A stretch of 64,000 nucleotides of DNA, from assembly GCA_011174815.1 (NCBI GenBank), contig DUFF01000023.1, positions 368 through 64,367 on the forward strand, read 5' to 3'. The stretch's first letter is position 1, and every line of letters starts with the position of its first letter. Position numbers and translations under genes: made by a program. Shown piece by piece: positions 8,357 through 45,025 of this stretch. The notes under the pieces were generated by a model. The model was not told where the DNA came from and ran no database searches. It saw only the letters and a program-made list of their open reading frames with translations. Origin of the DNA: Dehalococcoidia bacterium (GTDB lineage Bacteria > Chloroflexota > Dehalococcoidia > Dehalococcoidales > RBG-16-60-22).

Positions 8357-10021
8357 TCACTTATTCACATGATGGGCGGTGAGCTGCCTTTCCCTCACTT
8401 CCGGATTGGCATAGTCAGGAAGAAGTATCGGCGCCACGCGGTCGGTTACAACGCCTGATTTCTCCAAATCATGGTGATAATCTTTCACGTGTTGCAGTGA
8501 TAGTCTACCGTCCTTGGCTTTATCCCTGGTATAGCCGGATGCGCTCTCCCCGGCAATCCGTCCAAAGACGAGAACATCGAGCAGGGAATTGCCTATCAGG
8601 CGATTTTCGCCATGCACGCCGCCGCTGACCTCGCCGGCGATGAAAAGCCCGGGCACAGATGTTTCCCCGCGGGCATTGTATTCCAGTCCGCCATTCTGGT
8701 AGTGGAGCGTGGGGTAAATCAGCATCGGTTGCTTGGCGATATCAATGTCAAACCGCCGGTACACGATGAATTTACCCAAAAATTCCCTCTCCACCGTGCC
8801 TTCGCCCATCAAGATATCGATCATGGGCGAATCCAGCCATACGCCCAGTTTTCCGGTGGGCGTGGGAACGCCCTTTCCCGTCTCCAGACACTCCCTGATT
8901 ATAGCCGCTGATTCCACGTCCCTCGGCTCGCGCTCATAGACGAATTGCTCCCCGTCAATGTTCACCAGATTCGCCCCGGCCCCCCGGAATTTTTCCGTGA
9001 TGAGAAGGCCTTCCACCTGCTCGGGGAAGACAGCACCGGTGGGATGATACTGGATGGTATGCAGTAGCTTTAGCTTCACCCCGGCCCGGTAGCCCAAAAC
9101 AATGCCGTCAGCCGTGGCCCCGTAGTGATTGGTGGTCATAAAGCCCTGAATGTGCAAACGACCGCAGCCTCCGGTGGCCAGAATGGTCGCCTTGGCCTTG
9201 ACTATCAGGTATTCTTCGGTCTCCAGGTTGTAAAGTACGGCGCCGGCGCAGTGACCATGCTCGTTCAAAATAAGTTCGATGGTGGGGGAGAATTCCAGGA
9301 CGGTGATATTCTCTTTATTGCGGGCCTCATCGCGAATGGTGCGCATTATCTCGGCGCCGGTTATGTCACTGCAGTAATGCATTCGCTTCCGGCTTATCCC
9401 ACCGCCAAGCAAAGTATGCAGCCGGCCATCAGGAAATTTGGAGAACATCACCCCGAGACCTTCCAGCCACTTGAGCACTCCCGGTGCCTCGGTGACCAGA
9501 GTGCTCAGCAGTTCCGGTTCATTCTTAAAGTGGCCGCCACCCAACGTGTCAAGGTAATGCACGCAGGGCGAGTCTTTCTCCACCTTGCTGGCCGCCTGAA
9601 TGCCGCCTTCAGCCATCATGGTGTTGGCATCACCGTGGCGCAGTTTGGTGACCAGCAACACCCTGGCCCCGTTCTGCTCGGCAAGCAGCGCGGCTGCAGT
9701 CCCGGCACCACCACCCCCAATTATCAGGATATCGGTTTCCATATCCACGCGGGAGAGGTCGATGTAATCCGGGTTTATCCGGCTCCATGCCTCAAGCAGG
9801 TCGGCAAATTCGTGGGGAATCCGGTCCCCTTTGCTCGGCCCTACCTTCAGTTCCCGACGCCCCTCTCCTTTATAATCGGGATGAAACTTCTTCAGGACCT
9901 CATCGGCCTCATCCGGCGACATGCGGGGGAATTCCTCCCCCTTCTTCTTCCGCGCCAGCCGCTGCGGCCTGGTCTTCTCCACCACTTTTATCAGATTCGT
10001 CAGTTCCTCAGTGTACGGCAT
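8357..10021 (-). CDS. fumarate reductase/succinate dehydrogenase-family flavoprotein (FrdA/TfrA-like) with a ~95-aa N-terminal extension
   Basis: It has the FAD motif ILIIGGGGAGTAAAL, the HPT active-site motif (IQYHPTGAVFP), EKFRGAGANLVN (compare EGCRGEGG in SdhA), and the C-terminal GLFIAGEVSGGVHGENRLIGNSLLDVLVFGR. The position of the covalent-FAD His (SHTVAAQGG in SdhA/FrdA) reads ANTMMAEGG. Confidence 0.75.
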   Translation of the reverse strand: MPYTEELTNLIKVVEKTRPQRLARKKKGEEFPRMSPDEADEVLKKFHPDYKGEGRRELKVGPSKGDRIPHEFADLLEAWSRINPDYIDLSRVDMETDILIIGGGGAGTAAALLAEQNGARVLLVTKLRHGDANTMMAEGGIQAASKVEKDSPCVHYLDTLGGGHFKNEPELLSTLVTEAPGVLKWLEGLGVMFSKFPDGRLHTLLGGGISRKRMHYCSDITGAEIMRTIRDEARNKENITVLEFSPTIELILNEHGHCAGAVLYNLETEEYLIVKAKATILATGGCGRLHIQGFMTTNHYGATADGIVLGYRAGVKLKLLHTIQYHPTGAVFPEQVEGLLITEKFRGAGANLVNIDGEQFVYEREPRDVESAAIIRECLETGKGVPTPTGKLGVWLDSPMIDILMGEGTVEREFLGKFIVYRRFDIDIAKQPMLIYPTLHYQNGGLEYNARGETSVPGLFIAGEVSGGVHGENRLIGNSLLDVLVFGRIAGESASGYTRDKAKDGRLSLQHVKDYHHDLEKSGVVTDRVAPILLPDYANPEVRERQLTAHHVNK

Positions 10022-10030
10022 TCCTTCCTC

Positions 10031-10831
10031 CTAGGGATAATCATGCTTCGCCGGCGTCCAGTCCTCGCCCGCCATTTCCGGCTCCATTTCCCGGGACTTA
10101 TAGAGTTCCCTTAATTGTTTGACATCGGACTTCATCAGCTTCTGCAACGCCTGCTGGCATTTTTCGCTTTTCGCCACCTCGACCGCCTCATTCAGGTGCT
10201 CGGCCCTAGGCGCAATCCGGCTCCCGTAAATTCTCCGCGCCAGCTGCATGATGTGATACTGCGGCAATTCCCCCATGCACCTGCTGACGCAGAGGCCGCA
10301 CTGTATACAGCTAAAGGAAAGGGTGGCTGCCCTCTCGATGTTGCCCTGTTTCACCGCCGAGATAACGTCCATCACCTGGACATCCATGGGACAGACTTTG
10401 GTACAGCTATTGCAGGCGATGCAGCGAAATACCTCGGGATACAGCTTGAATATCTCCTCGGGACCGGCGGTGAGCTTCTCGAAATCATAGCTCGCCCGGT
10501 TCGCCGGGTAAAAGGGTATCTGCGTCAGATACATATCCGGTTCCACCACCGTCTGACAGGCCAGCCCAACGCGAAGGTGATAGTCCCCCGGCTTGCGATA
10601 AACGGTGGCGCAGGCGCCGCAGATGCCGCCCCGGCAGCCGCACCCGCGAATGAACTGGTATCCGGCGTACTCCAGCGCCTTCATGATGGTGAGCGTCTCC
10701 GGTACCAGATACCTTTTGCCCATCACGTAAACCGGAATCAGCTTTGCCTCTTCTGTTTCCGCCTCTTTCTTATTGATGGTCTCTGTACGCTCTTTATCCG
10801 CCATGATAACCTCCGTTTGATTATAAACCAA
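10031..10831 (-). CDS. FrdB/SdhB-like iron-sulfur protein ([2Fe-2S] plus two cubane-type cluster motifs)
   Basis: CGCRGGICGACATV is a 2Fe-2S-type motif. CIACNSCTKVCP and CIQCGLCVSRC are ferredoxin-type motifs. The start may be the ATG at 10804 (MADKERT) rather than 10831. Confidence 0.7.
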   Translation of the reverse strand: MVYNQTEVIMADKERTETINKKEAETEEAKLIPVYVMGKRYLVPETLTIMKALEYAGYQFIRGCGCRGGICGACATVYRKPGDYHLRVGLACQTVVEPDMYLTQIPFYPANRASYDFEKLTAGPEEIFKLYPEVFRCIACNSCTKVCPMDVQVMDVISAVKQGNIERAATLSFSCIQCGLCVSRCMGELPQYHIMQLARRIYGSRIAPRAEHLNEAVEVAKSEKCQQALQKLMKSDVKQLRELYKSREMEPEMAGEDWTPAKHDYP

Positions 10832-11690
10832 GCGAGGCCAACAGACCAGAAGGTGAAATCAAATGTTTTTTGAACCAGGACCCGGCCTCAGCTATTCCCA
10901 GCGCCAGCCCGATAAGTTCGGTGAAATAGAATACGGGCATTTTATTTCCGTTAGCTCCGCCCTGCCGCATTTCCAGGTTGGCGTGGCACAGCGGACAGGC
11001 GGCGACCATTGCCTCGGCACCGGCCCGCCTCGCCATCTCAACCAGCTCACCTACCATTCGCCTAGCCATTTCCCTTTTGCTCAGCGACAGGCTGCCACCG
11101 CAGCAGTCCACCTTGCCGGACCAGTCCCTGACCTCGGCACCAAGGGTATCAAGCAGAGCATCCAGGCACTGCGGGTTTTCCGGGTCATCGAAGGCAACGA
11201 TTTCAGGGGGGCGGACAAGGTAGCAGCCATAATAGGCGGCCAGTTTCAAGCCGTGTAGCGGTTTGACCACTTTATCTTTCAGGCTCTCCAGACCGATTTC
11301 GTTACAGATTATGTCAAGGAGATGTCGGGTATTATATTGAGCATTGTAGGACAGTCCGGTCAAATTTGTGAGTTCATCTCGCTGCTTTTCATCCTGTTTC
11401 ATCTCGTTCTGTGCTTTTCTCAACCTGATGTAGCAGGCGGGACAGGCAACGGCGATGTCCATCCCCATACCCTCGGCCAGCGCCAGGTTCCTGCCGGCGA
11501 GGTTACCGGCCAGACGACGGTCGGTGCTGTGCCCGGACGACGCCCCGCAGCAATTCCAGTCGGGAATCTCCGCCAGCTCAATGCCGAGATGCTCACACAC
11601 GGCGCGTACAGACAGGTCATACTCCCTGGCGGTAGCCTCCAAGGAACAGCCGGGGTAATAGGCATATTTCACTGCTGTCTGCTGATTCAT
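10821..11690 (-). CDS. hdrB: HdrB-like protein with two CCG (cysteine-rich) domains; equivalent to the C-terminal half of archaeal TfrB
   Basis: There are two CCG repeats: YPGC...NCCGASSG...CPACY and YYGC...VDCCGGSLS...CPLCH. The gene has a 4-nt stop/start overlap with the upstream hdrC-like gene. Confidence 0.8.
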   Translation of the reverse strand: MNQQTAVKYAYYPGCSLEATAREYDLSVRAVCEHLGIELAEIPDWNCCGASSGHSTDRRLAGNLAGRNLALAEGMGMDIAVACPACYIRLRKAQNEMKQDEKQRDELTNLTGLSYNAQYNTRHLLDIICNEIGLESLKDKVVKPLHGLKLAAYYGCYLVRPPEIVAFDDPENPQCLDALLDTLGAEVRDWSGKVDCCGGSLSLSKREMARRMVGELVEMARRAGAEAMVAACPLCHANLEMRQGGANGNKMPVFYFTELIGLALGIAEAGSWFKKHLISPSGLLASLGL

Positions 11691-12241
11691 TTTTCCGCTC
11701 CCCGGAAAATGTCCCTCACCTTTTCTATCTCTTTGAAGCGCTCCGGAAGCAACTTCAACTTACCCTTCATGAGCATTTTTATCCCCGGCAGCAAATCGCT
11801 GAACAGGTCTCGCGTCTTGAGTTTGAGCTTCAAAATCAGGGATAGTTCGTGCTGCCTACCCCACTGCTCAATGTTGCCCAGAAAAATGCGGTGGAAATCA
11901 GCGACACTGCGCTCTTTGACAAATCCTTCACGCAGCGAAATCTCACGCAGGACATCCATTATCCTGACGATGTCAACTTCATTGGGACATCTGGTAGCAC
12001 AGGCCTGGCAGTCGGCACAGACCCAGATGGTGGAACTGGTCAGCACCTGCTCCCGGAGGCCTATCTGCACCATGCGGACAATCTGGTGGGGAAGATAGTC
12101 CATGGCAAAGGCCGACGGGCAGCCCAGGCTGCAGGTGAGGCACTGGTAGCAGCGGTTTATTTCCGTGCCGCTCGCCTCTTTTACCTGCTCGGCAAAGTTC
12201 GCTTCAATTACCGCTACACCGTTCTTATCAAAGTACTGCAT
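11687..12241 (-). CDS. hdrC: HdrC-like 2x[4Fe-4S] ferredoxin-domain protein
   Basis: It contains CYQCLTCSLGCP and CADCQACATRCP. Its size and its position directly upstream of the hdrB-like gene fit HdrC. Confidence 0.8.
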   Translation of the reverse strand: MQYFDKNGVAVIEANFAEQVKEASGTEINRCYQCLTCSLGCPSAFAMDYLPHQIVRMVQIGLREQVLTSSTIWVCADCQACATRCPNEVDIVRIMDVLREISLREGFVKERSVADFHRIFLGNIEQWGRQHELSLILKLKLKTRDLFSDLLPGIKMLMKGKLKLLPERFKEIEKVRDIFRGAEK

Positions 12242-12244
12242 GGG

Positions 12245-13369
12245 CTACACCCCGATATTGGGCAGTTCCTCCTCCCTGAACGTGGTCAGGGGCAGTTCCT
12301 CATCCAGGCTTCTGCCCGGTACGTAATCGAATACCTTCTGTACCTCATATCCCACCAGGCGGAAAATATCGAAAACCGGAACATCGTTGGGACAGGCTTC
12401 CGTGCAAAGCCCACAGCCAACGCAGGCAACCACCATATGGTTGAGCCGGGTCAAATGAAAAAGCAGCGTATCGTTGGGCATGCGCAGAGCACCCTTTCTT
12501 TTTGCCCAACCCAGATACTTCTCGGCCTCGAATTCGAATACCGGAGAGTCGAAGAAGCACTCCTTGCAGTAGCAGAGCGGGCAGGCTGTCTTGCAGTTGT
12601 GGCAGTTGATGCAGGTGGCCAGCGTGGCCATCATTTTGTCCAGGCCCTTTACTTCTTCCTGGACCTGTTTTAAAACCTCTTCCCTCTTCCTTGCCCTCTC
12701 CGCAGTGAGCTTTTCTACGGCTGGCTGTCTCTCCCCAGCTTTCGCCTCCTCAAGGCCCATCTCCTCAATCACCTTTTCACCTTCCGGCGTTCCGGCGACC
12801 AGCAAAATCCCCTTGGCCAGGTCTACACCGAGCAGACCGATGGTGAGGTCAGCGCCCATGGGGACCGGGTATTCGCATATCTGGCAGGCTTTACGAAGCA
12901 GAGGGTCTTCCTTTCCCTCTCGCGCCCGGTTCAGGAAATCCTCGGTCGATGACGCGCTTTCCTTGACGGATTTTTCGTAGTCGTTTACCGAGTAGGTGCC
13001 AAAGCAGTCAATGCCTATCAGGAGCAGCTTATCCAGCGAGGCCTGCTTCAACTTCACCAGCTCAACGAGTGCCCGGAGTTCGCAGGAACGCAGCACCACA
13101 CCCAGCCGTTCCGGGCTGGAAGATACCAGGGTGACCCTGGAGACGAGCCGGGCGGCATTCACCGGCAGCACCGGCGCCAGCGGGTTGGCCCTCTGGACCT
13201 GCTCCGGCCGGCTCACGATAGTCGGTACCACATTCTCGCCCGTGGGCAATTCCAGCGGCACCAGCAGCGCATCGACCAGCTTTTTCTCCAGCAGGCCGGC
13301 CAGAAACTGGCGAATCGCCCCCAGCACTCCGTTTTCCACCGGCAAAGTTGCGTATCTTTCCATATTCAT
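12245..13369 (-). CDS. FrhB/FdhB-like (coenzyme F420 hydrogenase/dehydrogenase beta-family) Fe-S protein with C-terminal 2x[4Fe-4S]
   Basis: 374 aa. The N-terminal half (LLVPLELPTGENVVPTIVSRPEQV...LLIGIDCFGTYS) resembles the FrhB family. The C-terminal half has CINCHNCKTACPLCYC and CVGCGLCTEACP. The family assignment is from memory of the motif pattern. Confidence 0.5.
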   Translation of the reverse strand: MNMERYATLPVENGVLGAIRQFLAGLLEKKLVDALLVPLELPTGENVVPTIVSRPEQVQRANPLAPVLPVNAARLVSRVTLVSSSPERLGVVLRSCELRALVELVKLKQASLDKLLLIGIDCFGTYSVNDYEKSVKESASSTEDFLNRAREGKEDPLLRKACQICEYPVPMGADLTIGLLGVDLAKGILLVAGTPEGEKVIEEMGLEEAKAGERQPAVEKLTAERARKREEVLKQVQEEVKGLDKMMATLATCINCHNCKTACPLCYCKECFFDSPVFEFEAEKYLGWAKRKGALRMPNDTLLFHLTRLNHMVVACVGCGLCTEACPNDVPVFDIFRLVGYEVQKVFDYVPGRSLDEELPLTTFREEELPNIGV

Positions 13370-13372
13370 TCC

Positions 13373-13804
13373 TTAAATTGACCAGTCTTCCCGCAATGGA
13401 TTGGGCCCAAGTTTCTTAATTGATTCGGTCACCTCTCTCATGGTGCGGGCAAACTTGGCGCCTTCCGCAGCGCTGATCCATCTTATCCAGACCCGGTCAT
13501 CCTCAATTCCCAGGGTCTTCAGCATCGTCTTCAGTATGGCCATTCGCCTTCTCGCCTTGTAGTTTCCGGAGACATAGTGGCAATCGCCGGGAGTACATCC
13601 CCCTACAATCACGCCGTCAGCGCCGCCCAGCAGCGCCCGCAATACGTAAACCGGGTCCACCGATCCGCTGCACATGGTGCGGATGGGGCGGATATTGGCC
13701 GGGTACTGCATGCGGAGCGTGCCAGCGAGGTCGGCGGCGGTAGCCGTACACCAGTTGCAGAAGAAGCCCACGATTACCGGTTGAAACTCTTTTTCCTCGG
13801 CCAC
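13373..13804 (-). CDS. mvhD: MvhD/FlpD-like (methyl-viologen-reducing hydrogenase delta subunit family) [2Fe-2S] electron-transfer protein
   Basis: FCNWCTATAADLAG...IRPIRTMCSGSVDPVYVLRALLGGADGVIVGGCTPGDCHYVSGN is the conserved MvhD core. Confidence 0.85.
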   Translation of the reverse strand: MAEEKEFQPVIVGFFCNWCTATAADLAGTLRMQYPANIRPIRTMCSGSVDPVYVLRALLGGADGVIVGGCTPGDCHYVSGNYKARRRMAILKTMLKTLGIEDDRVWIRWISAAEGAKFARTMREVTESIKKLGPNPLREDWSI

Positions 13805-13819
13805 TTCTTTACCTCCTTA

Positions 13820-16800
13820 TCACTGAAAAACGGCATCTATTAACGAGAATACCTGCTTGTCCCTGAACCCTCTCATTTTGGCAGCGCCGCTGGGGCAGGC
13901 CACGACACAGGCCCCGCAGCCCTGACAGAGAGCCTCCCGTACAACTATCTCGTTGGTTTCCTCGTCTCTGGCTCTGGCATCGTAGGGGCAAACGGTAATG
14001 CACATCTCGCACTTACGGCACAGTCTCTGAACGACCTCGGAGACCATCCTTCCCGCTTTCAGGTGCTTCGAGGTCAGCAGGGATACCGCTCTTCCGGCGG
14101 CGGCCTGTGCCTGGGCGATGGTCTCCTCGATACCCCGGGGCGACTGAGCCAGCCCGCAGACATAGATACCCTCTCGCAGAAAATCTGTAGACCGGAACTT
14201 CTCCTCTGCCTCGCGGAAGAAGCCATCCTCATCCGTCTCTACCTCCAGGATACCGGCGAGCGCCGGGTTATCATTCGGGATAATGCCCGTGCTCAGAACG
14301 ACCAGGTCGGGCTCAAGCACCAGCTTTCCCCCTAACACCGGCTCGATGAGCTCCGTGATTAACCGCTCCCCCTCCTCTTTTACCTCCGGTTTGCTGTCCA
14401 GCCCGTAGCGTATAAATTGCACGCCTTTTTCCCGCGCCAGTGTATAGTACTGCTCCTTGAAGCCGTAGCTCATCACATCCCGGTGGAGAACGGCTACCTC
14501 AATGCCGGGATTTACTTCCTTCAATTTCAAAGCATTTTTTATGGCCTCTGAGCAGCAGACACGGCTGCAATACGGCCGGTCTTTCTCCCTGGAGCCGACA
14601 CACTGTATCATCACCACCGAACTCAGCCCACTCGGGTCAATCTCGCCGGAAGCAAGCCTCTTTTCCAGCTCACGCTGCGTGAGCACCTTCTGACTTTGCC
14701 CGTACAGGTACTCTTCGGGGCGGTACTCATCACCACCGGTAGCGACGATGACGGCACCGACTTCCAGTACATCTGTGGTGTCGTCTTTCTTCTTGATACT
14801 GACCCGAAAATCACCGGCATAGCCGCTGGTCGCCACCACCTCTGACTCCAGGTGCAGGTGGATATTGGAGTTGCTGCTCACCTGCTCCAAAGTATCTTTG
14901 AGCAATGGCCGGGTATCGCCGCTTTCCAGCGTGGAGTACAGGTCCTTCAGGTTTCCGCCCAGCTCCGGTGATTTTTCGACAAGGTGGACTTCAATGTCAT
15001 GCCGGGCGATGGACAGGGCCGCCGTCATGCCGGCGATGCCGCCGCCGATGACCAGCGCGCCGGGTGTTACCGCCGTCAGCGATACGGGCGGATAGTCCTG
15101 CTGTCTAGCATCCTCTATGGCCATGTTCAGCAGGCTTCTGGTCTTGGCCAGAGCAGCATCGGGCTGGTCACGGTGCACCCAGACCACGTCTTCCCTGAGA
15201 TTCACCACCCTGATTTTCTCCGGCATAAGTCCAGCCTCAGTGGCAAATTTATCATTAATGTATTTGTTGACACACAGGCCACACCCACCCAGCACCAGAC
15301 GGTTGCCCTTGTGCTCCTTTGCTCCTTTTGCCACTGCTTCCAAGGCCTCGTCCGAGCAGAGGTAGGGCACCTGTTCTACGTGAACCATGCCCGGCAGTTG
15401 TCCTATGTAACCTGCCACCGACTCAAGGTCGAGCGCGGAGGCGATTTCATCGCCGCAGCCGCACAGAAAAACGACAACCTGCGGCGCTTCCTCTTCTGAC
15501 GGTGTTTCCGCCGGCTTTTCAGCCGCAGGGCGGGCAGGAGGTGAGCTGAGCCATCGCGTCGCCTCACCAGCAGCAGCACCGGCTTCAACCACCGTATCGG
15601 TGATATCCTTGGGGCCGGCGGCACTGCCACATACGTATATTCCATCCTGTGACGTCTCCGTCAGAGAAAACGGACGCGTCTGGCAGAACCCCCACCGATT
15701 GGTCTCCACGCCTAGGACCTGACAGAGCTCCCCGAATTCCGGGGCCGGCGTCTGGCCCACGGACAGCACGGCCATTTCAAACTGGCGCCTGACCGGTAAG
15801 CCACCATCAGCGGCCACGGTAAGCATAATGTTATGGGTCTGGGGGTCTTCTTTCACCACCGGGACGCGGCAGCGGGTGAAGTGCACGCCGAGTTCGTCCC
15901 TGGCATGCTCATAGTAGCGATAATAACCCTTGCCGAAGGTCCTCAAATCCATGAAAAAGATATGGACATCCGTATCCGGCCAGGTCTTTCTGATGAGCGC
16001 GGCCTCTTTTACGGCAAACATGCAGCACGCCGAGGAGCAGTAATCCCTCCCGCGGTCACGCGAGCCGATGCACTGCAAAAAGGCAATTGACGCTGGCGTT
16101 TTGCCATCTGAAGAACGGACCAGCTCCCCTCCGGAAGGTCCGCCCGGACTGAGTATACGCTCCAGCTCAATGCTGGTTATTACGTTGGGATAGCGCCGGT
16201 AGCCATACTGCGTGGCCATGCGCGGGTCGAATTCCTCGAAGCCGGTCGACAGGATAATGGCACCCACCTGGAGCTGCATGGTGCTCTCCTTCGGTTCCAG
16301 CTGAATGGCCTGGGTGGGGCACTTGCCGACGCATTCTCCGCACCGGGTGCATTTTTCCCAGTCTATGGCATACCGGCGAGGAGAGGCGTATGGATTCGGC
16401 ACATCGATAGCCTTCTTTCGACCCAGCCCCTCGTCGAATTGACTTTCCACCTCGACCGGGCAGGCCTCAGTACAGAGCCCGCAGCCAATGCATAAGCTAG
16501 CATCCACGCCGGTGCTCCTCGTGCTTAATTCTGCTCTGAAATCGCCCGCCTCGCCCTGCAGGCCGGTTACTTCCGTGTTGAAAAGCAGCTCGACTCCGGG
16601 ATGGACCAGCCCGCGCCGCAGGCAGAACTGGGAGGATAAATCTCTATTCAGTGTGGGCAGCATCTGGCACAGGCTGCAGTGGTTGTCCGGGAACCACCTG
16701 TCCATCTGAACCACGGCGCCACCGATGCTCGGCTTCCGCTCGCAGAGATAGACCGTATATCCCGCCTCCGCCAGGTCCAGGGAGGCCTTTATTCCGGCCA

Positions 16801-16852: not shown

Positions 16853-18810
16853 ACATATTCCGCAGTGGCGATATCGATTACCTCGAAAAACTGTCGGGCG
16901 GTCCAGTTCCGGTGCTGCATCGCTCCGGAAGGACAGGTAACCGCACAGGCGCCACAGCCGTCACATATCGCTTCATTGACCCAGGCCACCTTCTTCACCG
17001 GGTCGAGCTCGATTGCCTTAAAGGCACAGATGGCAACACACTGTCCGCAGCCACGGCATACTTCCGGGTCAACGACGGCAACGGTGGGCTCATGGAGCAG
17101 CTCCCTGCGGGAGAAAAGGGAGAGGATTTTGCTCGCCGCCCCGCTCGCCGAGGCGATAGTATCAGGCAGGTCTCTGGGCCATTGCGCCGTCCCCGCCAAG
17201 TAGATGCCGGCAGTAAGGGTCTCCACCGGCCTCAACTTGATGTGCGCTTCGGTGATAAAACCATACTGGTCAACGATGATATTGAGCTTCCTCGCCAGTT
17301 CCTTGGCTCCCGGATTGGGTACCATGGCGGTGGCCAGAACCACCAGGTCGGCGGCAATCTCAATGCTCTTTCCGGTCAGAGTGTCGGAACCCCAGACCTT
17401 GAGCTTATCCCCGTCCCGGAATATCCTGGACACCCTTCCCCGCAGATAGAGGACCCTTTCCTCATCCACCATTTTCTTGACATATTCCTCATAGCCCTTG
17501 GCATCAGAGCGAATATCCATATAAAAAACGTATGCCTGGCCTTCGGGAACGGCCTGTTTGTAAAGAAGTGCGTGTTTCGCCACGTACATGCAGCAAACCC
17601 GCGAGCAGTAGGACACGCCGTGTTCCGGGTCGCGGGAACCGACACACTGTAGGAAAACAACCTGCTCCGGTATTTTCCCATCAGACGGCTTTCTGACCTC
17701 ACCTGACGTTGGACCGGAAGGTGAAAGCAGCCTCTCGAACTGTAGCCCATCTATCACGTCCGGATCTGAGGCATATTCGGCAATGCCGGTGCATGGGAAA
17801 AGCTCATAGCCCGTGGCCACGATAATGGCACCGACCTCCTCCTCAACTATTGTGTCCTCCTGTTTGAAATCTATGGCATTTTGGGGGCAAGCTTCCTGGC
17901 AGGCCTGGCACTTATCGCCACCAAAATGCCGGCAGGTCTCCCGGTCTATCACCGGTCGCTGCGGCAGGGCCTCGAGAAAGGGGATGTAGATGGCACCGCG
18001 TTGCGCAAGCTCCCGGTCGAATTCGGAAGCAGTCTTCACGGGACAGCTTTCCAGACAGAGCCCGCAGTAATTGCACTTCGATTCATCTACAGACGTCGCC
18101 TTACGCCGGATGCTCACCTGAAAATTGCCGACGTATCCGGATACGTCTTCCAATTCTGAGTAGGCGTAAAGACTGATATTGGGATGCGAAGCTATCTTTG
18201 ACATCATGGGTGAAACCAGTCCCGGTATAACATCGCCAGTCAGGAATGTCTCCGATAGCTGTGCGGTATGCCCGCCAATGCTGGGGCTTTGCTCCACCAG
18301 CACCACTTCGTAGCCGCTATCGGCGATGTCCAGAGCTGCCTGCATCCCCGCCACCCCGGCCCCGATCACGAGCACCCTCTTGGTCAGCGGCACCACTAGG
18401 GGAGTAAGAGATATATTGCGACGCAATTTTTCGATTATCGCCTTGATGATGGCGACTGCCTTTCTGGTGGCCGTTTCCTTATCGCCGGCATGGGGCCAGC
18501 TGCACTGCTCCCGTATATTGGCAATCTCACAGAAGTAGGGATTAACCCCTTCAGAAGCCGCCAGTTTGCGAAACGTCGCCTGGTGCAGAGAGGGCGAGCA
18601 ATTGCTCATGATAATGCCGTCCAGGCCTTTTTCTTTAATTGCCTTTCGCACCAGCTCCTGGCCCGGGTCGGAGCACATGTAAATATAGTGCTCGGCGTGG
18701 GCTACGCCGGGGTAATCCTTTATCTGCTCCACGACCTGCTCCACGTCCACCGTGCCGGCGATATTCAGCCCGCAGTGGCAGACAAAGACGCCGATTCGCT
18801 TCTCTTTCAT
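16849..18810 (-). CDS. hdrA: HdrA (heterodisulfide reductase subunit A-like FAD/Fe-S flavoprotein)
   Basis: 653 aa. It has the N-terminal Cys domain IGVFVCHCGLNIAG, the FAD motif VLVIGAGVAGMQAALDIADSG, FLQCVGSRDPEHGVSYCSRVCC, and a C-terminal 2x[4Fe-4S] domain (CRGCGQCVAICA and CDGCGACAVTCP). It overlaps both neighbours by 4 nt. Confidence 0.9.
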   Translation of the reverse strand: MKEKRIGVFVCHCGLNIAGTVDVEQVVEQIKDYPGVAHAEHYIYMCSDPGQELVRKAIKEKGLDGIIMSNCSPSLHQATFRKLAASEGVNPYFCEIANIREQCSWPHAGDKETATRKAVAIIKAIIEKLRRNISLTPLVVPLTKRVLVIGAGVAGMQAALDIADSGYEVVLVEQSPSIGGHTAQLSETFLTGDVIPGLVSPMMSKIASHPNISLYAYSELEDVSGYVGNFQVSIRRKATSVDESKCNYCGLCLESCPVKTASEFDRELAQRGAIYIPFLEALPQRPVIDRETCRHFGGDKCQACQEACPQNAIDFKQEDTIVEEEVGAIIVATGYELFPCTGIAEYASDPDVIDGLQFERLLSPSGPTSGEVRKPSDGKIPEQVVFLQCVGSRDPEHGVSYCSRVCCMYVAKHALLYKQAVPEGQAYVFYMDIRSDAKGYEEYVKKMVDEERVLYLRGRVSRIFRDGDKLKVWGSDTLTGKSIEIAADLVVLATAMVPNPGAKELARKLNIIVDQYGFITEAHIKLRPVETLTAGIYLAGTAQWPRDLPDTIASASGAASKILSLFSRRELLHEPTVAVVDPEVCRGCGQCVAICAFKAIELDPVKKVAWVNEAICDGCGACAVTCPSGAMQHRNWTARQFFEVIDIATAEYV

Positions 18811-21527
18811 CGTTTTTCCGCTTTTTCCAGCACCGGCTCCTGCTGTGAGAACAGCGCCAGTACTTTGCTCGCTGCCCCGCTCCCCTGGGCCACCGAATCG
18901 GGGATGTCCTTGGGGCCCTGGGCGGTACCGGCGATATAGATGCCCGGCACCGAACTCTCCAGGGGACGAAGCTTGGGATGGGCTTCGGTGATAAACCCGT
19001 GCATATCGGTATTTATGCCCAGTATCCGCATCAACTCCCTGGCCGCCGGGTCAGGTACCATGGCCATGCCCAGCACCACCAGGTCGCAGGACAGTTCTAT
19101 TCTCTTCCCGGTCAGGGTGTCCGCTCCCCAGACTTTGAGCTTATCACCATCCCGGAATATCTTGGAGACTCTACCCCGCAGATAGAGCACTCCATCTTCC
19201 TCCACAGCTCTTTGCACGAATTCCTCATAACCTTTCCCGGTCGTTCTGATGTCCATATAGAAGATATATGCCTGACCATCGGGGACAGCGTGCTTGTAGA
19301 GCATGGCCTGTTTGACCAGATACATACAGCACACCCGGGAACAGTAAGGGACACCGTGCTCCGGGTCGCGGGAGCCCACACAGGAGATGAATGCCACCTC
19401 TTTCGGTTCTTTGGCGTCGGACGGCCTCAGCACCACGCCGGCGGTAGGACCGCCGGGACAGAGAATCCGTTCAAATTGAATTCCGTCCAAGATATCCAAA
19501 TCCGGCTCAAACTCTGAGATCGCTTTAACCGGTGTTAATTCAAAGCCGGTGGCCACCACAATGGCTCCGACCTCAACTTCCTCATAGCGGTCGGCCAGCT
19601 CGTGGTTGATCGCTTTTCTCTCGCAGGCTACTTCACAGGAGAAGCACTCGCAGCAGCCGGCGCAGTTCAGGCAGCGTTTGGCTTCCTCAATGGCCGTTTT
19701 CTCGTCAAGGCCGAGTTCCACCTCGGCAAAGGAGCGCTCTCTCTGTTTCAGGTCAAGCATCGGCATGGCTGCCCTCGACCTCGGCAATACCCCTTCCTTG
19801 GAGACCTCTTCGACTTTGTTAAGCTGCCTTGGCCTTCCCTCACACAGGTCAGCGCCATTCAAATAGCGGTCAATGCTTTCCGCCGCCTCTTTGCCCGCAG
19901 CAATGGCCCGGATAACATCCGCCGGACCAGAGACCATATCTCCGCCGGCGAAGACACCGGCCATACTGGTTTCAAACGTGACCGGGTCTGCGGAAAGAGT
20001 ACCTCGCTCGGTACAGGCAAGCTCTTCGGGCAGCCCGGCTTTATCCACCACCTGACCGATGGCGATGATGACATTGTCAACGTCCAGAATAAATTCCGAG
20101 CCTTTGACCGGTATCGGTCTCCGGCGGCCGCTGGCATCGGGCTCACCCAGCTCCATACGCAGGCACTCGATGCCGGTCAGTTTGCCACCCTGGCTCAAAA
20201 CCTGCGTCGGCGCAGCTAAAATATGGAGCCTGACACCTTCTTTTTCCGCCTCGTCAACCTCTTCGGCAACCGCCGGCATTTCGTCCCGGGAACGACGGTA
20301 AACGATGGTCACCTCGTCAGCGCCCAGACGTTTGGCCACCCGGGCGGCATCCACCGCTGCATTGCCTCCACCAATGACCACCACCCGCCGGCCCAGGCTG
20401 GCTTTATCTCCGGAGTTGACCTGCTTCAGGAAATCAAGGGCATGGATTACCCCCGGCGTGTCCTCACCGGGGATGTTCATTTTCTGGCTCATTCCGGCAC
20501 CAGTGCCCAGAAATACCGCCTTGTACCCTTCGGCAAAGAGCTTGCCCGGGTCCTCCACCCGGCTATTCGTCCTGACTTCAACGCCGAGTTCCTGGACATA
20601 ATCAATCTCGTTATCAAGCACGTTCTTCGGCAATCGGTATTCCGGAATTCCATAGCGCAGCAGACCGCCGGCCACAGGCATGGCCTCAAATACGGTTACC
20701 GGATATCCCTTCCGGATCAGGTCATAGGCACAGGCCAGACCCGCCGGCCCGGAGCCAACCACCGCCACCTTCTCCTGTCTTGTCTTTTCGACGGGAGTTA
20801 CCTTCTCTCTGCCCGCCTTCAGCTCGTAATCGGCAATGAATCGTTTGAGAGTTCGGATGGCCATGGGCTCATCGACAGTCCCCCGTTCACACTCCGTTTC
20901 ACAGCGATGAGTACAGACCCGCCCGATTACCCCGGCGAAGGGCATGGTCCGGCGCACCACCTCCAGAGCTTCCGGGAACTTACCCTGAGAAATAAGGGCA
21001 ATATACCCCTGAGCATTCACGCCAGCCGGACAGGCAACCCGGCACGGGGAGTACCCCCTCTTTTCCACAGTAAAGACAGCGGGGACCGCCTGACCGAATG
21101 GTTTATAGATTGCCTTTTGTGCGGTGACACCGCGCTCGTACTCGCTATATACTTCCACCGGGCATACGGCGGCACATTCTCCGCAGCCGGTGCACTTGTC
21201 CCACTCCACATAAGGGGTCTTTCTTCTGATTCGAACGTTAAAATTGCCAACTTTCCCGGAGACGCTTTCTACCTCGGAATAGGTTAAAAGCCTGATGTTG
21301 GGGTGCTGTCCCACCTCCACCATTTTGGGGGTCATGATACATTGCGGACAATCCAAGGTCGGAAAAACCTCTGAATACTGGAGCATATGACCGCCAATGC
21401 TGGGCGTTCTTTCCACCAGAATAACTTCATATCCCGCATCGGCGATGTCCAGGGACGCCTGAATGCCCGCCACCCCACCACCGATTATCAATGCCTTTCT
21501 GGCAATGGAACCATCTATACTTCCCAT
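18807..21527 (-). CDS. hdrA: HdrA-like flavoprotein with an inserted GltD/NfnB-like NAD(P)H:FAD oxidoreductase module (HdrL-type architecture)
   Basis: 906 aa. HdrA N-terminal part: ALIIGGGVAGIQASLDIADAG. Inserted module: VAVVGSGPAGLACAYDLIRKGYPVTVFEAMPVAGGLLRYGIPEYRLPK, RVVVIGGGNAAVDAARVAKRLG and VFAGGDMVSGPADVIRAIAAGK, which is the glutamate synthase small-subunit pattern. HdrA C-terminal part: FISCVGSRDPEHGVPYCSRVCC. Confidence 0.85.
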   Translation of the reverse strand: MGSIDGSIARKALIIGGGVAGIQASLDIADAGYEVILVERTPSIGGHMLQYSEVFPTLDCPQCIMTPKMVEVGQHPNIRLLTYSEVESVSGKVGNFNVRIRRKTPYVEWDKCTGCGECAAVCPVEVYSEYERGVTAQKAIYKPFGQAVPAVFTVEKRGYSPCRVACPAGVNAQGYIALISQGKFPEALEVVRRTMPFAGVIGRVCTHRCETECERGTVDEPMAIRTLKRFIADYELKAGREKVTPVEKTRQEKVAVVGSGPAGLACAYDLIRKGYPVTVFEAMPVAGGLLRYGIPEYRLPKNVLDNEIDYVQELGVEVRTNSRVEDPGKLFAEGYKAVFLGTGAGMSQKMNIPGEDTPGVIHALDFLKQVNSGDKASLGRRVVVIGGGNAAVDAARVAKRLGADEVTIVYRRSRDEMPAVAEEVDEAEKEGVRLHILAAPTQVLSQGGKLTGIECLRMELGEPDASGRRRPIPVKGSEFILDVDNVIIAIGQVVDKAGLPEELACTERGTLSADPVTFETSMAGVFAGGDMVSGPADVIRAIAAGKEAAESIDRYLNGADLCEGRPRQLNKVEEVSKEGVLPRSRAAMPMLDLKQRERSFAEVELGLDEKTAIEEAKRCLNCAGCCECFSCEVACERKAINHELADRYEEVEVGAIVVATGFELTPVKAISEFEPDLDILDGIQFERILCPGGPTAGVVLRPSDAKEPKEVAFISCVGSRDPEHGVPYCSRVCCMYLVKQAMLYKHAVPDGQAYIFYMDIRTTGKGYEEFVQRAVEEDGVLYLRGRVSKIFRDGDKLKVWGADTLTGKRIELSCDLVVLGMAMVPDPAARELMRILGINTDMHGFITEAHPKLRPLESSVPGIYIAGTAQGPKDIPDSVAQGSGAASKVLALFSQQEPVLEKAEKR

Positions 21528-21545
21528 TGTTTTTCCGTATAGTAA

Positions 21546-22424
21546 TTAAGAGACCACTTTCCTGCTCTTAAGTAGAGAAAAAGGATCCCCATAGCTCAGT
21601 TCAAAATGGCAGACTTCTGGGTCAATTCCCAGGGCAATAGCCAGAAGCTGAGTGAAATAGAAGACCGGCATGCCCTGAAAATCGCTGTACCTTTTTACCA
21701 GTTCCGGCTGTCTTTGGCTGAGGTTGAAGTGACAGAGGGGGCAGGTGAGGACAATAGCTTCCGCGCCACACCTAATTGCCGAGCTCAATATCTCCCAGGC
21801 ACGCTGGTTAATGAAATCGGGATTGCCCACAATCTGAAATGAGCCGCAACATTCGGTGGCGTAGGGGAAATCAACTGCTTCCGCACCCAGGCTTTTCATC
21901 ATCTGATGCAGAATGGTTGGCCTTTCCACCTCGTCGATGGCCACGTCCTGGGGTCGCAGCAGTGTGCAGCCATAATATGGCGCCACTTTCAGGCCCTGCA
22001 GCGGGACTTTAACTTTTTCGGTTATAGCCTCCCAGCCGACCTCGTCCCGCAGCACCTCGAGAAGATGCAAGACCTCTACTTCCCCATTGTAATCAACCTC
22101 TTCCTCCATGAAGTCGTTAAGGGTCTTCCTCTTTTCGCCGTCATTGCGCACCAGCAAATTCGCCCGTTTCAGCGTATGATAGCAGAAAGAGCACAGGGTA
22201 ACCACTCTATCGCTGCCCTGTTCTTTGACGCGAATGAGATTGCGCACTGGAGCCAGATGATGTGCCAGGTCATCCTCAGCGAGCGAATAGACGGTGCCGC
22301 AGCAATTCCAGCGTTCGATTTCGACCAGCCTGATGCCCAGGGCATTCATGGAGGCAATGGCCGAATCCTCCAAACCTTTCGCCGCTGTCTTCAATGTACA
22401 GCCCGGATAGTAGCTCAGATCCAT
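21546..22424 (-). CDS. hdrB: HdrB-like protein with two CCG domains (second copy)
   Basis: The track ORF 21546..22748 overlaps hdrC. The ATG at 22424 (MDLSYYPGCTLK), preceded by GAGGGG, gives a standard ~292-aa HdrB. CCG repeats: YPGC...WNCCGTVYS...CSFCY and YYGC...TECCGSFQ...CPLCH. Confidence 0.85.
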   Translation of the reverse strand: MDLSYYPGCTLKTAAKGLEDSAIASMNALGIRLVEIERWNCCGTVYSLAEDDLAHHLAPVRNLIRVKEQGSDRVVTLCSFCYHTLKRANLLVRNDGEKRKTLNDFMEEEVDYNGEVEVLHLLEVLRDEVGWEAITEKVKVPLQGLKVAPYYGCTLLRPQDVAIDEVERPTILHQMMKSLGAEAVDFPYATECCGSFQIVGNPDFINQRAWEILSSAIRCGAEAIVLTCPLCHFNLSQRQPELVKRYSDFQGMPVFYFTQLLAIALGIDPEVCHFELSYGDPFSLLKSRKVVS

Positions 22425-22432
22425 AATACCCC

Positions 22433-22840
22433 TCAGGCAGTGTGCTTGCGGAAGCTGCTCACCAGTGCTATCTGTGGAAGTTCGCTGATGGTATCTTTCG
22501 GGATTTTTGCCGCGCCCACATAGTCGATATTCTTCCTCAGGGTGATGAGTCTTATGGCCTCCATCACCCTGCCCAAGTCGACCCCACGCGGACAGCGCAC
22601 GGTGCAGGTAAGGCAAGAGGCACAGAGCCAGACCGTTTTTGACGCGGCGATATCCTCTTCCAGCCCCAGCTGTGCCAGTCGAATAATCTGATTGGGCAGC
22701 AGATCCATGGCAAAGCACATAGGGCAGCCAGCCGAGCATTTGCCACACTGATTGCAGGCTAGAAGGTCCTGTCCGGAGATTTCGGTTACTTTCTTAACGA
22801 AGTCACTCTGCAGCGTCCTTGAAGATATCTGAATCCTCAT
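22433..22840 (-). CDS. hdrC: HdrC-like 2x[4Fe-4S] protein (second copy); first gene of the minus-strand redox cluster
   Basis: It contains CNQCGKCSAGCP and CASCLTCTVRCP, is 135 aa, and lies immediately upstream of hdrB. Confidence 0.85.
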   Translation of the reverse strand: MRIQISSRTLQSDFVKKVTEISGQDLLACNQCGKCSAGCPMCFAMDLLPNQIIRLAQLGLEEDIAASKTVWLCASCLTCTVRCPRGVDLGRVMEAIRLITLRKNIDYVGAAKIPKDTISELPQIALVSSFRKHTA

Positions 22841-23095
22841 CCTAAAGCCTTATTCAAATTCTGGCCGGAGCCAGAAATCCACTTTGCTGAGTTTAAGGTG
22901 TATTTTGAAATAATTCAACAGCAGTTTGAGGAGACGTGCGATGTAAACGGTTAATCCACCTTCCGGTGAATCTCTGTTCCAGCATACATCCCAATTTTAG
23001 CAAATGAAATGAGGAAAAGCAAAATCGGATAGATAGGCCGAGTGAAAAAGACACAATCCTTACCTTTTCCTATGTCCATAAGTGCCCACCTAAAC

Positions 23096-45016: not shown

Positions 45017-45025
45017 TTCGTGTTT

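Follow-up and report, generated by a model that had tools for sequence, protein, structure and literature searches.

An eleven-gene cluster of a Dehalococcoidia bacterium as a candidate electron-bifurcating, Hdr-coupled fumarate reductase

Which reaction would call for a fumarate reductase-like subunit pair, two pairs of heterodisulfide reductase (Hdr) subunits C and B, and four HdrA cores to be encoded side by side? This question is raised by a cluster of eleven genes in a Dehalococcoidia bacterium (assembly GCA_011174815.1). The cluster lies on a 64,000-nt stretch of contig DUFF01000023.1 (forward strand, positions 368-64,367), which was analyzed as a whole and is referred to here as the window; all coordinates are those of the window. 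Judging from the sequences of the genes and their relatives, the product of the cluster is most likely a single soluble fumarate reductase complex that is independent of quinones and coupled to Hdr. We further assign a probability of about 0.5 to the proposal that this complex bifurcates electrons, as an NAD(P)H (or F420H2):fumarate and ferredoxin oxidoreductase that would feed a 2-oxoglutarate:ferredoxin oxidoreductase (OGOR).

Gene order and subunits of the cluster

Eleven successive open reading frames (ORFs), all on the minus strand, occupy positions 8357-22840 in the ORF list of the window, and the domain content of all eleven proteins was borne out by Pfam and NCBIfam scans. An earlier sequence-only reading of this DNA had named eleven minus-strand genes in this order, and both the ORF list and the scans agree with it; in searches with hidden Markov models, the families that it had singled out (FAD_binding_2, CCG, Fer4, Pyr_redox_2, FlpD, and FrhB_FdhB_C) were all matched. 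In gene order, the features are:

22841-23138, no strand: divergent intergenic region between hdrC1 and the delta gene of a 2-oxoacid:ferredoxin oxidoreductase (OFOR), as read from the sequence
22433-22840, minus strand: hdrC1, 135 aa; two CxxCxxCxxxCP motifs; Pfam Fer4_8/Fer4_17
21546-22424, minus strand: hdrB1, 292 aa; two complete CCG motifs (10 Cys); Pfam CCG twice
18807-21527, minus strand: HdrL (hdrA with GltD/NfnB insert), 906 aa; Fer4_20 and Pyr_redox_2, PRK12771
16849-18810, minus strand: full-length hdrA, 653 aa; HdrA-type Pyr_redox_2 and Fer4
13820-16852, minus strand: tandem (fused-dimer) hdrA, 1010 aa; from Pfam and NCBIfam
13373-13804, minus strand: mvhD (MvhD/FlxD/ElpC-like [2Fe-2S] adaptor), 143 aa; Pfam FlpD, 178.8 bits; five Cys
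12245-13369, minus strand: FrhB-like (FrhB/FdhB/ElpB/FlxC-like flavo-Fe-S protein), 374 aa, annotated start M3; FrhB_FdhB_C and Fer4
11687-12241, minus strand: hdrC2, 184 aa; two CxxCxxCxxxCP motifs; C-terminal extension
10821-11690, minus strand: hdrB2 (HdrB/SdhE-like), 289 aa; two complete CCG motifs; Pfam CCG twice
10031-10831, minus strand: FrdB-like SdhB-type Fe-S subunit; Pfam Fer2 and Fer4
8357-10021, minus strand: FrdA-like flavoprotein, 554 aa; Pfam FAD_binding_2 alone, 238 bits

Genes overlap by 4 nt at 18807-18810, at 16849-16852 (which presupposes a GTG start of tandem hdrA), and at 11687-11690, and every other gap measures 3-18 nt; the three overlaps and the gaps of at most about 20 nt noted earlier agree with these coordinates. 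From this spacing, a single-operon layout is likely, as had been held before. The mechanical ORF of hdrB1 reaches 22748, and its start was set at the ATG at 22424, eight bases past the hdrC1 stop; frdB starts at TTG 10831 or ATG 10804. Among the window ORFs scanned, there was no hydrogenase large subunit and no molybdopterin protein, consistent with the previously noted absence of MvhAG and formate dehydrogenase. The closest database protein was 100% identical and came from a Dehalococcoidia metagenome-assembled genome (MAG).

The residues of the FrdA-like protein were mapped by alignment with E. coli FrdA, SdhA, and NadB. FAD_binding_2 spans residues 97-480, and a 95-aa N-terminal extension precedes the FAD and capping domains. 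Succ_DH_flav_C was not matched, and about 120 C-terminal residues are missing in the alignment with the E. coli proteins; the earlier FrdA-like description thus needs correcting, in that the domain set departs at both ends from that of FrdA. H326, T342, E343, R367, H440, and R474 correspond to H232, T244, E245, R287, H355, and R390 of E. coli FrdA, and Asn133 stands at the position of the His that binds 8-alpha-FAD covalently (FrdA His44/SdhA His45). The six catalytic residues and the Asn were identical in 77 of 77 full-length relatives, in which the N-terminal extension was also conserved (mean identity 61%). Enzymes that work as reductases only typically hold their FAD non-covalently (E. coli FrdA H44 mutants, Fcc3, and NadB), and in FrdA H44 variants the non-covalent flavin abolishes succinate oxidation. 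Given that Asn at this position predicts a non-covalent flavin, the enzyme would be a reductase rather than a succinate dehydrogenase.

When the FrdA-like protein was scored against NCBIfam, TfrA came first (328 bits; cut-off 718), followed by the SdhA/FrdA model TIGR01812 (281; cut-off 567) and the NadB model TIGR00551 (269; cut-off 452), although such bit scores are a weak proxy for phylogenetic placement. The closest PDB entry was 7d6v_A, SdhA of Mycobacterium Sdh1 (222 bits). Because the best curated models fall far below their cut-offs and the closest structure reaches just 222 bits, the protein appears to form a separate clade within the SdhA/FrdA/NadB superfamily. An AlphaFold2 (AF2) model built from a 26-sequence alignment (homologues at least 79% identical) had a pLDDT of 36 and was unusable. 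AprAB/QmoABC was considered and dropped (nothing of AprA type among the NCBIfam or PDB matches; an Fe-S partner with an SdhB-type [2Fe-2S] domain), as was the tricarballylate dehydrogenase TcuAB (no TcuA-type model among the best 25 of 41 NCBIfam matches; no membrane TcuB).

In the FrdB-like protein, alignment with E. coli FrdB/SdhB placed the [2Fe-2S] site at C66, C71, C74, and C92 and the [4Fe-4S] site at C137-C147. The third site reads CxxCxxCxxxC, which predicts [4Fe-4S] in place of [3Fe-4S]; [4Fe-4S] is also found at the S3 site of the SdhB-type subunit of type E complex II (PMC2754724). TIGR00384 gave 34 bits against a cut-off of 88, and SdhB/FrdB membership is assigned by topology, not by curated model. 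The TfrB model aligned serially with FrdB, HdrC2, and HdrB2, with weak partial matches to each.

The two HdrCB pairs differ from each other. For hdrC1, the best NCBIfam models were QmoC and CoB_CoM_SS_C, both under cut-off, and its nearest relatives were HdrC proteins of the minimal hdrCB-frdBA loci described below; hdrB1 scored 168 bits with CoB_CoM_SS_B (cut-off 345). For hdrC2, CoB_CoM_SS_C gave 84.5 bits (cut-off 160), and the C-terminal part resembles the C-termini of non-classical SdhB proteins in NCBIfam, while hdrB2 was matched best by MFR_anch_SdhE (191 bits) and then by CoB_CoM_SS_B (178 bits), both under cut-off. As pairs, HdrC1B1 resembles that of minimal loci and HdrC2B2 that of Syntrophaceae-type loci.

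The HdrA cores were mapped onto 5odc_A, whose sequence was rebuilt from the alignment. K409 and E356 serve as the residues for recognizing a bifurcating HdrA (PMC12054007), and their equivalents are kept in all four cores. The 653-aa HdrA matches 5odc_A end to end (626 bits over residues 1-646; NCBIfam HdrA2, 714 against a cut-off of 1100), with the N-terminal domain, the TrxR-like FAD core (E359/K412), and the inserted and C-terminal ferredoxin domains; it has no CxxC, carrying G197 where 5odc has C197. HdrL keeps the CxxC (C60/C63), E686, and K739 and lacks the N-terminal domain and the C-terminal ferredoxin domain of HdrA. At about aa 160-600, an NfnB/GltD-like NAD(P)H-FAD-2x[4Fe-4S] module takes the place of the inserted ferredoxin domain and is flanked on either side by matches to the HdrA2 model; PRK12771 scored 544.6, above its cut-off of 516. 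The PDB relatives of the insert are NfnB, Stn, and GltD (matches 9bov, 9n5u NfnA, 8oh5_C, and NfnB 4ylf_B/5jca_L), and those of the core are HdrA 5odc/8rvu. The insert thus appears to occupy the low-potential exit site of HdrA.

Three stretches of the tandem HdrA match 5odc_A. Its N-half contains C59/C62, E231/K282, and the inserted ferredoxin domain; its C-half contains an N-terminal-type domain, E730/K772, and the C-terminal ferredoxin domain, without CxxC. Among the four cores, CxxC is therefore restricted to HdrL and the tandem N-half, and the N-terminal domain and the C-terminal ferredoxin domain to the 653-aa HdrA and the tandem C-half. Because these features are distributed with the same asymmetry in both, the four cores are best read as two asymmetric pseudo-dimers, one split (HdrL with HdrA) and one fused (the BamE-like tandem).

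The FrhB-like protein matched FdhB chains 9t1s_M/7bkb_E and 8rvu_E at about 101 bits each, the last being deposited as formate dehydrogenase beta subunit in an Elp-Hdr entry. Its AF2 model had a pLDDT of 73 overall and of 80-95 for aa 1-250, the C-terminal third being of low confidence, and Foldseek aligned the model with 8rvu_E (ElpB) and 7bkb_E (FdhB), both at a TM-score of 0.66, and then with FrhB, HCAR, and Fsr. By sequence, the protein matches the C-terminal FrhB Pfam domain alone, whereas the modeled fold is that of a full-length FdhB/ElpB-like protein; the earlier FrhB-like assignment is corrected to this extent. Its Cys residues are invariant among relatives. In Methanothermobacter, ElpB (FAD-containing, F420H2-oxidizing) and the MvhD-like ElpC form a donor arm of Hdr (PMC12350162), and on the modeled fold MvhD and the FrhB-like protein look like a candidate hydride-accepting arm of the ElpBC/FlxCD kind. 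At the metagenome locus L121, described below, the counterpart of the FrhB-like gene is FlxC-like.

Conservation of the FrdAB-HdrCB unit and its metabolic neighbors

Relatives were scanned with one genome per species, and FrdA-like relatives were found at no fewer than 582 loci/species genomes. Architectures were counted in the best 80 loci (67-87% identical), which come from Dehalococcoidia, Syntrophaceae/Thermodesulfobacteriota, Ignavibacteria, Zixibacteria, Planctomycetota, Myxococcota, Gemmatimonadota, KSB1, Holophagae, and others. Stretches from genomes or metagenomes that were compared with the window are labeled with an L and a number. Five architectures were distinguished:

Type E (minimal): hdrC-hdrB-frdB-frdA; 25 loci
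Type D: hdrC-hdrB-hdrA-mvhD-frdB-frdA; 4 loci
Type C: hdrC-hdrB-hdrA'-hdrA-frdB-frdA; 5 loci
Type B: ...hdrA-hdrC-hdrB-tandem hdrA-mvhD-frhB-frdB-frdA; 29 loci
Type A (window-like): the order of the window; 7 loci

Because all five architectures, from 4 to 11 genes, contain it, the constant unit is the FrdAB-like pair with one HdrCB pair, onto which HdrA-based modules were accreted. The frdB gene lay directly upstream of frdA in 68 of the 80 loci, and Hdr genes lay upstream in 70 of 70 informative loci. HdrCB adjoined frdBA in all 70, and in 63 of them a single HdrCB pair was present within the upstream flank (up to 10 kb), which argues for a direct electron wire from HdrCB to FrdBA. Two HdrCB pairs occur in type A alone, and in other lineages either of these two HdrCB types was found to accompany FrdBA by itself.

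The type A order, or as much of it as the contig covers, was present at 7 genome loci, and the window order including HdrL was kept at nine metagenome loci at 72-93% identity (L084, L087-L090, L093-L095, and L100). This answers in the affirmative the earlier question of neighborhood conservation, and because the eleven-gene order recurs in other genomes and metagenomes, the arrangement is not due to chance. Elsewhere, hdrC-hdrB-hdrL-tandem hdrA-mvhD-frhB-like was found with no frdBA in the next 2 kb (L116, L118, L119, L120, and L135, at about 9600-18750); this Hdr super-module therefore also serves another acceptor. In Ignavibacteriaceae, a second, canonical-looking SdhA/FrdA (34% identity) lies a few kb from hdrCB-frdBA (L035, 412-1584; L036, 402-1583; L055, 12945-14090), and the canonical-looking and Hdr-linked FrdA types coexist at these loci.

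Beyond the divergent intergenic region, the window encodes enzymes for the use of succinate:

23139-23366, plus strand: OFOR delta-type 2x[4Fe-4S] ferredoxin subunit, 75 aa; OGOR_delta 47.7 against a cut-off of 125
23323-24468, plus strand: OFOR alpha; POR_N/PFOR_II; PRK08659 582, above the cut-off of 411
24465-25292, plus strand: OFOR beta; TPP_enzyme_C
25249-25851, plus strand: OFOR gamma; POR
25876-27006, plus strand: succinyl-CoA synthetase beta; NCBIfam equivalog 438.7, above the cut-off of 370
27014-27907, plus strand: succinyl-CoA synthetase alpha; NCBIfam equivalog 395.4, above the cut-off of 336

PRK08659, the model passed by OFOR alpha, is a generic 2-oxoacid model. In window-like metagenome relatives that reach upstream of hdrC1, the divergent arrangement with these kor genes was kept down to 72% identity, and SucCD followed beyond kor where contigs were long enough. 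Among the genome loci, SucCD adjoined frdBA in 17 of 80, from four phyla (and also in L094/L131), and korAB did so in 3 of 80; pyruvate-carboxylase-B-like genes lay upstream in four loci. In L114 and L138, korABG-hdrA-mvhD-hdrCB-frdBA runs on one strand. L121 (258-17570 of a metagenome contig) is a reductive tricarboxylic acid (TCA)-type cluster with the order frdBA-hdrCB-korABG-hdrA-mvhD, in which korABG is again on the same strand; FlxC-, FlxB-, and FlxA-like genes and the gene for ATP-citrate lyase (ACL) beta come next, aconitase B is encoded nearby, and NAD_binding_1/DHODB_Fe-S_bind and Fer4_22 domains are present. Because SucCD, kor, and frdBA recur side by side, the three consecutive steps from fumarate to succinate, succinyl-CoA, and 2-oxoglutarate are repeatedly encoded together. 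Besides SucCD, OGOR, and pyruvate-carboxylase-B-like genes, the conserved neighbors included no thiol carrier, membrane anchor, or cytochrome, and the other common neighbors within Syntrophaceae were housekeeping genes (prfB, tyrS, RNase Y, and others).

Proposed mechanism and its alternatives

We propose that NAD(P)H would enter at the NfnB/GltD-like domain of HdrL and/or a hydride donor at the FAD of the FrhB-like protein, which would form an arm with MvhD. The entering electrons would reduce a bifurcating HdrA flavin, for which the four cores are candidate sites, and each electron pair would be split. One electron would run downhill from HdrC via HdrB and FrdB to the non-covalent FAD of FrdA and on to fumarate (about +30 mV), while the other would run uphill through the ferredoxin domains of HdrA to ferredoxin (Fd). 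Reduced ferredoxin (Fd_red) and succinate would then be used by SucCD and the OFOR for 2-oxoglutarate, making up a self-sufficient reductive TCA branch. The stoichiometry would balance, with 2 Fd_red made per fumarate and 2 Fd_red needed per succinyl-CoA carboxylated, and the reaction of 2 NAD(P)H with fumarate and 2 oxidized Fd (Fd_ox) would be exergonic by about 40 kJ/mol (E0' of -320, +30, and about -450 mV). Electron transfer from NADH to fumarate yields -58 kJ/mol, and carboxylation by OGOR requires low-potential Fd (PMC13147460). Transfer by an HdrBC-type subunit to a non-disulfide acceptor has been described for BamD, which passes electrons to an electron-transferring flavoprotein (ETF) (bioRxiv 10.64898/2026.04.10.717634), and MetVF-HdrCBA-MvhD is a further precedent (PMC9430772). 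For the fumarate link put forward in the sequence-only reading, the retained catalytic residues, the Asn in place of His, the SdhB-type partner, and the adjoining OFOR and SucCD genes all speak in favor; bifurcation, the direction, the donor, and complex formation we, too, only infer.

A broader, joint reading can be offered tentatively, and we regard it as less likely than not. Fumarate might be the first high-potential acceptor known for flavin-based electron bifurcation (FBEB), reduced by a megacomplex of an NfnB-type module and two HdrA pseudo-dimers, the split one and the BamE-like fused one. Coupling might be hierarchical, with NAD(P)H (perhaps F420H2) reducing ferredoxin and both products passing to SucCD/OGOR. 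As part of the same reading, FrdAB-HdrCB might represent a hitherto unrecognized, phylum-spanning class of complex II relatives with non-covalent FAD, an N-terminal extension, and no membrane anchor, present in at least 582 species genomes.

If the proposed bifurcation is true, fumarate would be added to the short list of bifurcation acceptors, and part of the energy of fumarate reduction would be recovered as reduced ferredoxin, the reductant of the next-but-one enzyme, 2-oxoglutarate synthase; a reductive TCA branch or cycle would become cheaper. To anaerobes that lack quinones, Dehalococcoidia and methanogens among them, the membrane offers no way of conserving the energy of fumarate reduction. 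Members of the FrdAB-HdrCB family occur widely among phyla of sediments and the subsurface, where they are annotated just as 'FAD-binding protein', and assigning them would alter many MAG reconstructions. The series of 4 to 11 genes also constitutes a natural experiment on the addition of Hdr modules to a terminal reductase.

Several observations weigh against this proposal. In two close relatives (L085, 6224-7528; L086, 10919-12223), a 435-aa HdrA' without the NfnB/GltD insert replaces HdrL; because the remainder of the cluster is unchanged (HdrB1 is 88% identical to that of the window), the NAD(P)H module is dispensable or replaceable. The GltD/NfnB-like domain of the 906-aa HdrA, earlier taken as an electron input, is thus upheld as a domain by its PRK12771 score, although not as an obligatory part of the cluster. 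Type C loci encode no MvhD, FrhB-like protein, or NAD(P)H domain, and 25 of the 80 loci, those of the minimal type, have no HdrA. Given that the donor varies and that minimal loci lack HdrA, bifurcation cannot hold for every member of the family, and the core enzyme must use other donors (thiol, quinol, or ferredoxin) in many organisms. Any of the four HdrA flavins is a candidate for bifurcation. Both HdrB proteins retain all ten CCG cysteines, whereas BamD carries out no disulfide chemistry and has mostly lost the distal cluster (bioRxiv 10.64898/2026.04.10.717634), so that a thiol/disulfide step is possible. In NCBIfam, the Frd and Hdr subunits all fall well short of the equivalog cut-offs, and the best substrate-specific models of the OFOR, although of 2-oxoglutarate type, are all under cut-off as well. 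Scans for promoter and terminator consensus at both cluster ends gave nothing above shuffled expectation. A Dehalococcoidaceae MAG (L003, 7790-20607) encodes an FrdA-like protein of 85% identity with no frdB or hdr neighbors. Its gene is flanked on one side by those of a family III CoA-transferase and an HpcH/HpaI lyase and on the other by MBL, MFS, galactarate-dehydratase-like, BKACE, and MmgE/PrpD genes, and the protein might be a second copy devoted to a C4/C5-dicarboxylate pathway.

These observations bear on four other explanations. The cluster might be a non-bifurcating electron sink, in which Fd_red, F420H2, or NAD(P)H is oxidized with fumarate, the HdrA cores act as wires, and the OFOR supplies Fd_red. 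Ferredoxin is the sole evident partner in type C loci, which have no hydride-donor domain; the NfnB insert is missing in L085/L086; OFORs are reversible, and adjacency gives no direction; and the Hydrogenobacter-type NADH-dependent fumarate reductase is presented as an irreversible enzyme that simply uses NADH (PMC13147460). We nevertheless consider a simple sink unlikely, since four cores that all keep K409/E356, two of them with CxxC, would be costly for downhill transfer, a span of 450-480 mV would go to waste, and reductive flow, with OGOR consuming Fd_red, agrees with the linkage to SucCD, ACL, aconitase, and pyruvate-carboxylase-B-like genes. It seems less likely still that the cluster runs a thiol cycle, in which HdrC2B2-FrdBA would be a split thiol:fumarate reductase and HdrC1B1 with HdrA would re-reduce the disulfide by bifurcation, a small thiol or a DsrC/TusA-like protein being the candidate dithiol. 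Two distinct HdrCB pairs, each with ten CCG cysteines for two non-cubane clusters, would suit such a cycle, as would TfrA as the top model for the FrdA-like protein and the serial TfrB alignment; minimal loci encode no other donor. The cycle could not close within the cluster at the 63 of 70 informative loci where the examined flank holds a single HdrCB pair, either HdrCB type suffices as sole FrdBA partner elsewhere, and the neighborhood contains no conserved thiol-carrier gene. Bacteria are not expected to contain CoM and CoB, which also counts against a thiol cycle. A DsrC-like route has been considered for Endoriftia, but SdhE of type E complex II keeps its CCG motifs without thiol chemistry (PMC2754724).

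Another substrate for the FrdAB-like pair, such as L-aspartate (as in NadB), mesaconate/methylsuccinate, itaconate, or another C4/C5 dicarboxylate, is improbable in our view. The NadB model scored nearly as high as the SdhA/FrdA model (269 versus 281 bits), NadB has the same catalytic residues, and the missing C-terminal domain and added N-terminal extension would be compatible with a changed specificity, as would the L003 homologue beside CoA-transferase III, HpcH/HpaI lyase, and MmgE/PrpD genes. NadB, however, has no counterpart of the SdhB-type [2Fe-2S] partner encoded directly upstream in 68 of 80 loci, the recurrent neighbors are SucCD, OGOR, ACL, and aconitase rather than nadA/nadC, and the L003 context (a malyl-CoA/citramalyl-CoA-type lyase and a CoA transferase) also fits succinate/fumarate chemistry. 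Least probable is an oxidative direction, with succinate converted to fumarate and its electrons confurcated with those of Fd_red onto NAD(P)+ or F420 by a quinone-free succinate dehydrogenase of syntrophic or fermentative metabolism. The abundance of the family in Syntrophaceae and Thermodesulfobacteriota, the reversibility in principle of Hdr-type complexes, and the supply of succinate and Fd_red by OGOR and SucCD run oxidatively would be in keeping with it. Set against these are the Asn for the covalent-FAD His in 77 of 77 relatives, since a non-covalent flavin abolishes succinate oxidation, and the energetics: the mean of succinate (+30 mV) and Fd (about -450 mV) is about -210 mV, above NAD(P)H, and the reaction would be endergonic by about 40 kJ per succinate. 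Bifurcating fumarate reduction is thus the reading that we prefer.

Relation to known systems and other features of the window

A complex of bifurcating Hdr-Flx, TfrAB, and OGOR was proposed in 2019 for Endoriftia and Thioflavicoccus, with co-expression (PMC6315080, PMC11636981, PMC13147460). The flxABCD-hdrABC/tfrAB/korABCD system, which is found in tubeworm symbionts (Ca. Endoriftia persephone and the symbiont of Escarpia) and in Thioflavicoccus mobilis, embodies the same idea, that NADH reduces fumarate and also Fd for OGOR; this system is itself a genomic and transcriptomic hypothesis. As in the window, its OGOR genes are interleaved with or adjoin the hdr and frd genes. L121 combines the published layout with the same FrdAB-like family: its FrdA-like protein is full-length (55% identity), has the N-terminal extension and an Asn in place of His44, and retains the complete catalytic set. 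The window differs in having no FlxA/FlxB (no NAD_binding_1/DHODB_Fe-S_bind or Fer4_22 in the eleven proteins), so that NAD(P)H entry would be at the NfnB/GltD-like domain of HdrL; it also contains two HdrCB pairs, and four HdrA cores where the published system has one, and ACL is not in the window.

With the methanogen complexes MvhAGD-HdrABC, FdhAB-MvhD-HdrABC, and ElpABC-HdrABC (5ODC, 7BKB, 8RVU; PMC12350162), the window shares the HdrA core, HdrB with two CCG domains, HdrC with 2x[4Fe-4S], and MvhD, and the features of an HdrABC-type module were all found, including the TrxR-like FAD core with K409/E356. In contrast to these complexes, the window has no hydrogenase, FdhA/ElpA, or CoM/CoB, HdrA pseudo-dimers replace the dimer, the NCBIfam Hdr equivalog cut-offs are missed, and FrdAB of the complex II type is presumed to take the place of the heterodisulfide as acceptor. 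Methanothermobacter TfrAB is a soluble, quinone-independent fumarate reductase composed of an FrdA-type flavoprotein and Fe-S/CCG domains, and it serves a reductive branch to 2-oxoglutarate in an anaerobe that has no quinones. The window likewise combines an FrdA-type flavoprotein with Fe-S and CCG domains, and TfrA is its top NCBIfam match, although at 328 against a cut-off of 718, without the C-terminal domain and with the N-terminal extension added; TfrB is one fused protein, whereas the window splits these parts into FrdB, HdrC2, and HdrB2, with one extra dicluster domain.

The class II benzoyl-CoA reductase from Geobacter metallireducens, Bam[(BC)2DEFGHI]2, contains BamE, a fused HdrA dimer roughly 1000 aa long whose bifurcating unit carries Cys59/Cys62 and Lys280 (bioRxiv 10.64898/2026.04.10.717634). 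C59/C62/K282 of the tandem HdrA coincide with these residues, the two proteins being likened by the published description. The Bam complex also has an MvhD-like adaptor, an HdrBC-like subunit leading to a non-disulfide acceptor, and two bifurcation modules, which for the window are predicted. It differs in its tungsten-containing BamB, its NuoEF-like BamGH, and its acceptor (ETF rather than FrdAB), and the HdrB proteins of the window keep the distal CCG ligands, as the second FAD site keeps K/E. In HdrCBA-MvhD-MetVF of Moorella and Sporomusa (PMC9430772), the logic is that of the type D relatives, namely HdrABC and MvhD with a two-subunit flavo-Fe-S reductase for a substrate of central metabolism, which is MetVF there and FrdAB in type D. 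The type E succinate:quinone oxidoreductases and methylmenaquinol:fumarate reductases, SdhABE(F) (PMC2754724, PMC2680327), share the second [4Fe-4S] in the SdhB-type subunit and the CCG partner. The window departs from them in its FAD, predicted to be non-covalent (Asn), the missing SdhA C-terminal domain, and the extra HdrC; neither an SdhF-like gene nor a sign of quinone or membrane association was seen.

HdrL, a fusion of HdrA with the glutamate synthase small subunit, was named in Desulfobacterium autotrophicum (PMC2702500), and an HdrABC-HdrL-MvhD-FeS cluster is known from Syntrophobacter fumaroxidans (Sfum_0819-0824; PMC5947623). Such sulfate-reducer and syntroph clusters, like the window and like L116-L120 and L135, place the fusion beside mvhD, an FdhB-like Fe-S protein, and hdrBC; they have no FrdAB-like pair, and DsrC is among their proposed acceptors. 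A five-subunit soluble NADH-dependent fumarate reductase of the reductive TCA cycle was reportedly described in Hydrogenobacter thermophilus by Miura in 2008. Its genes are scattered, and its reaction is plain NADH-dependent and irreversible (PMC13147460). It resembles the window in being a soluble fumarate reductase with extra non-complex-II subunits, which the sequence-only reading takes to be Hdr-like and GltD-like.

The phrase 'electron-bifurcating fumarate reductase' did not occur in the papers searched. The concept of a bifurcating fumarate reductase feeding OGOR is already published and is not new here. The novelty claimed in the sequence-only reading therefore holds for the eleven-gene combination and not for the concept, proposed in 2019, or for the HdrL fusions and clusters already named in sulfate reducers. 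New are the Dehalococcoidia combination itself (HdrL in place of FlxAB, the BamE-like tandem HdrA, and two HdrCB pairs); the recognition that FrdAB-like plus HdrCB forms a unit conserved across phyla and differing from complex II in defined ways; and the architecture series of 4 to 11 genes, together with the reading of the HdrA genes as two pseudo-dimers.

To the left of the cluster, an IclR regulator (5842-6594) and a thiamine pyrophosphate (TPP) enzyme (6640-8346) are convergent to frdA, and the pair is kept beside frdA in the close relatives L001 and L002; the TPP enzyme scored 753 against the 791-bit cut-off of glyoxylate carboligase and passes the acetolactate synthase model TIGR00118. 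Farther left lie a TauE/SafE sulfite-exporter-family protein (1471-2226) and a Na+/H+ exchanger with TrkA_N (3949-5670), with no link to the cluster seen in this flank. Right after sucD, a mobile-element-like block occupies 28778-36088 on the minus strand, with a large serine recombinase (28778-30406), a small resolvase (30569-31198), a ParB_N protein (32322-32954), a Mom-family DNA-modification protein (33007-33726), and a 675-aa DUF3631 protein (34061-36088). At about 36000-54000 of the window, GC content falls from about 55% to 36-45%, and glycosylation and polysaccharide genes are encoded (GT-C AftD-like, epimerases, PMT_2, and GT2 with methyltransferase), along with an IS110 transposase at 52607-53884; this region is probably a horizontally acquired island.

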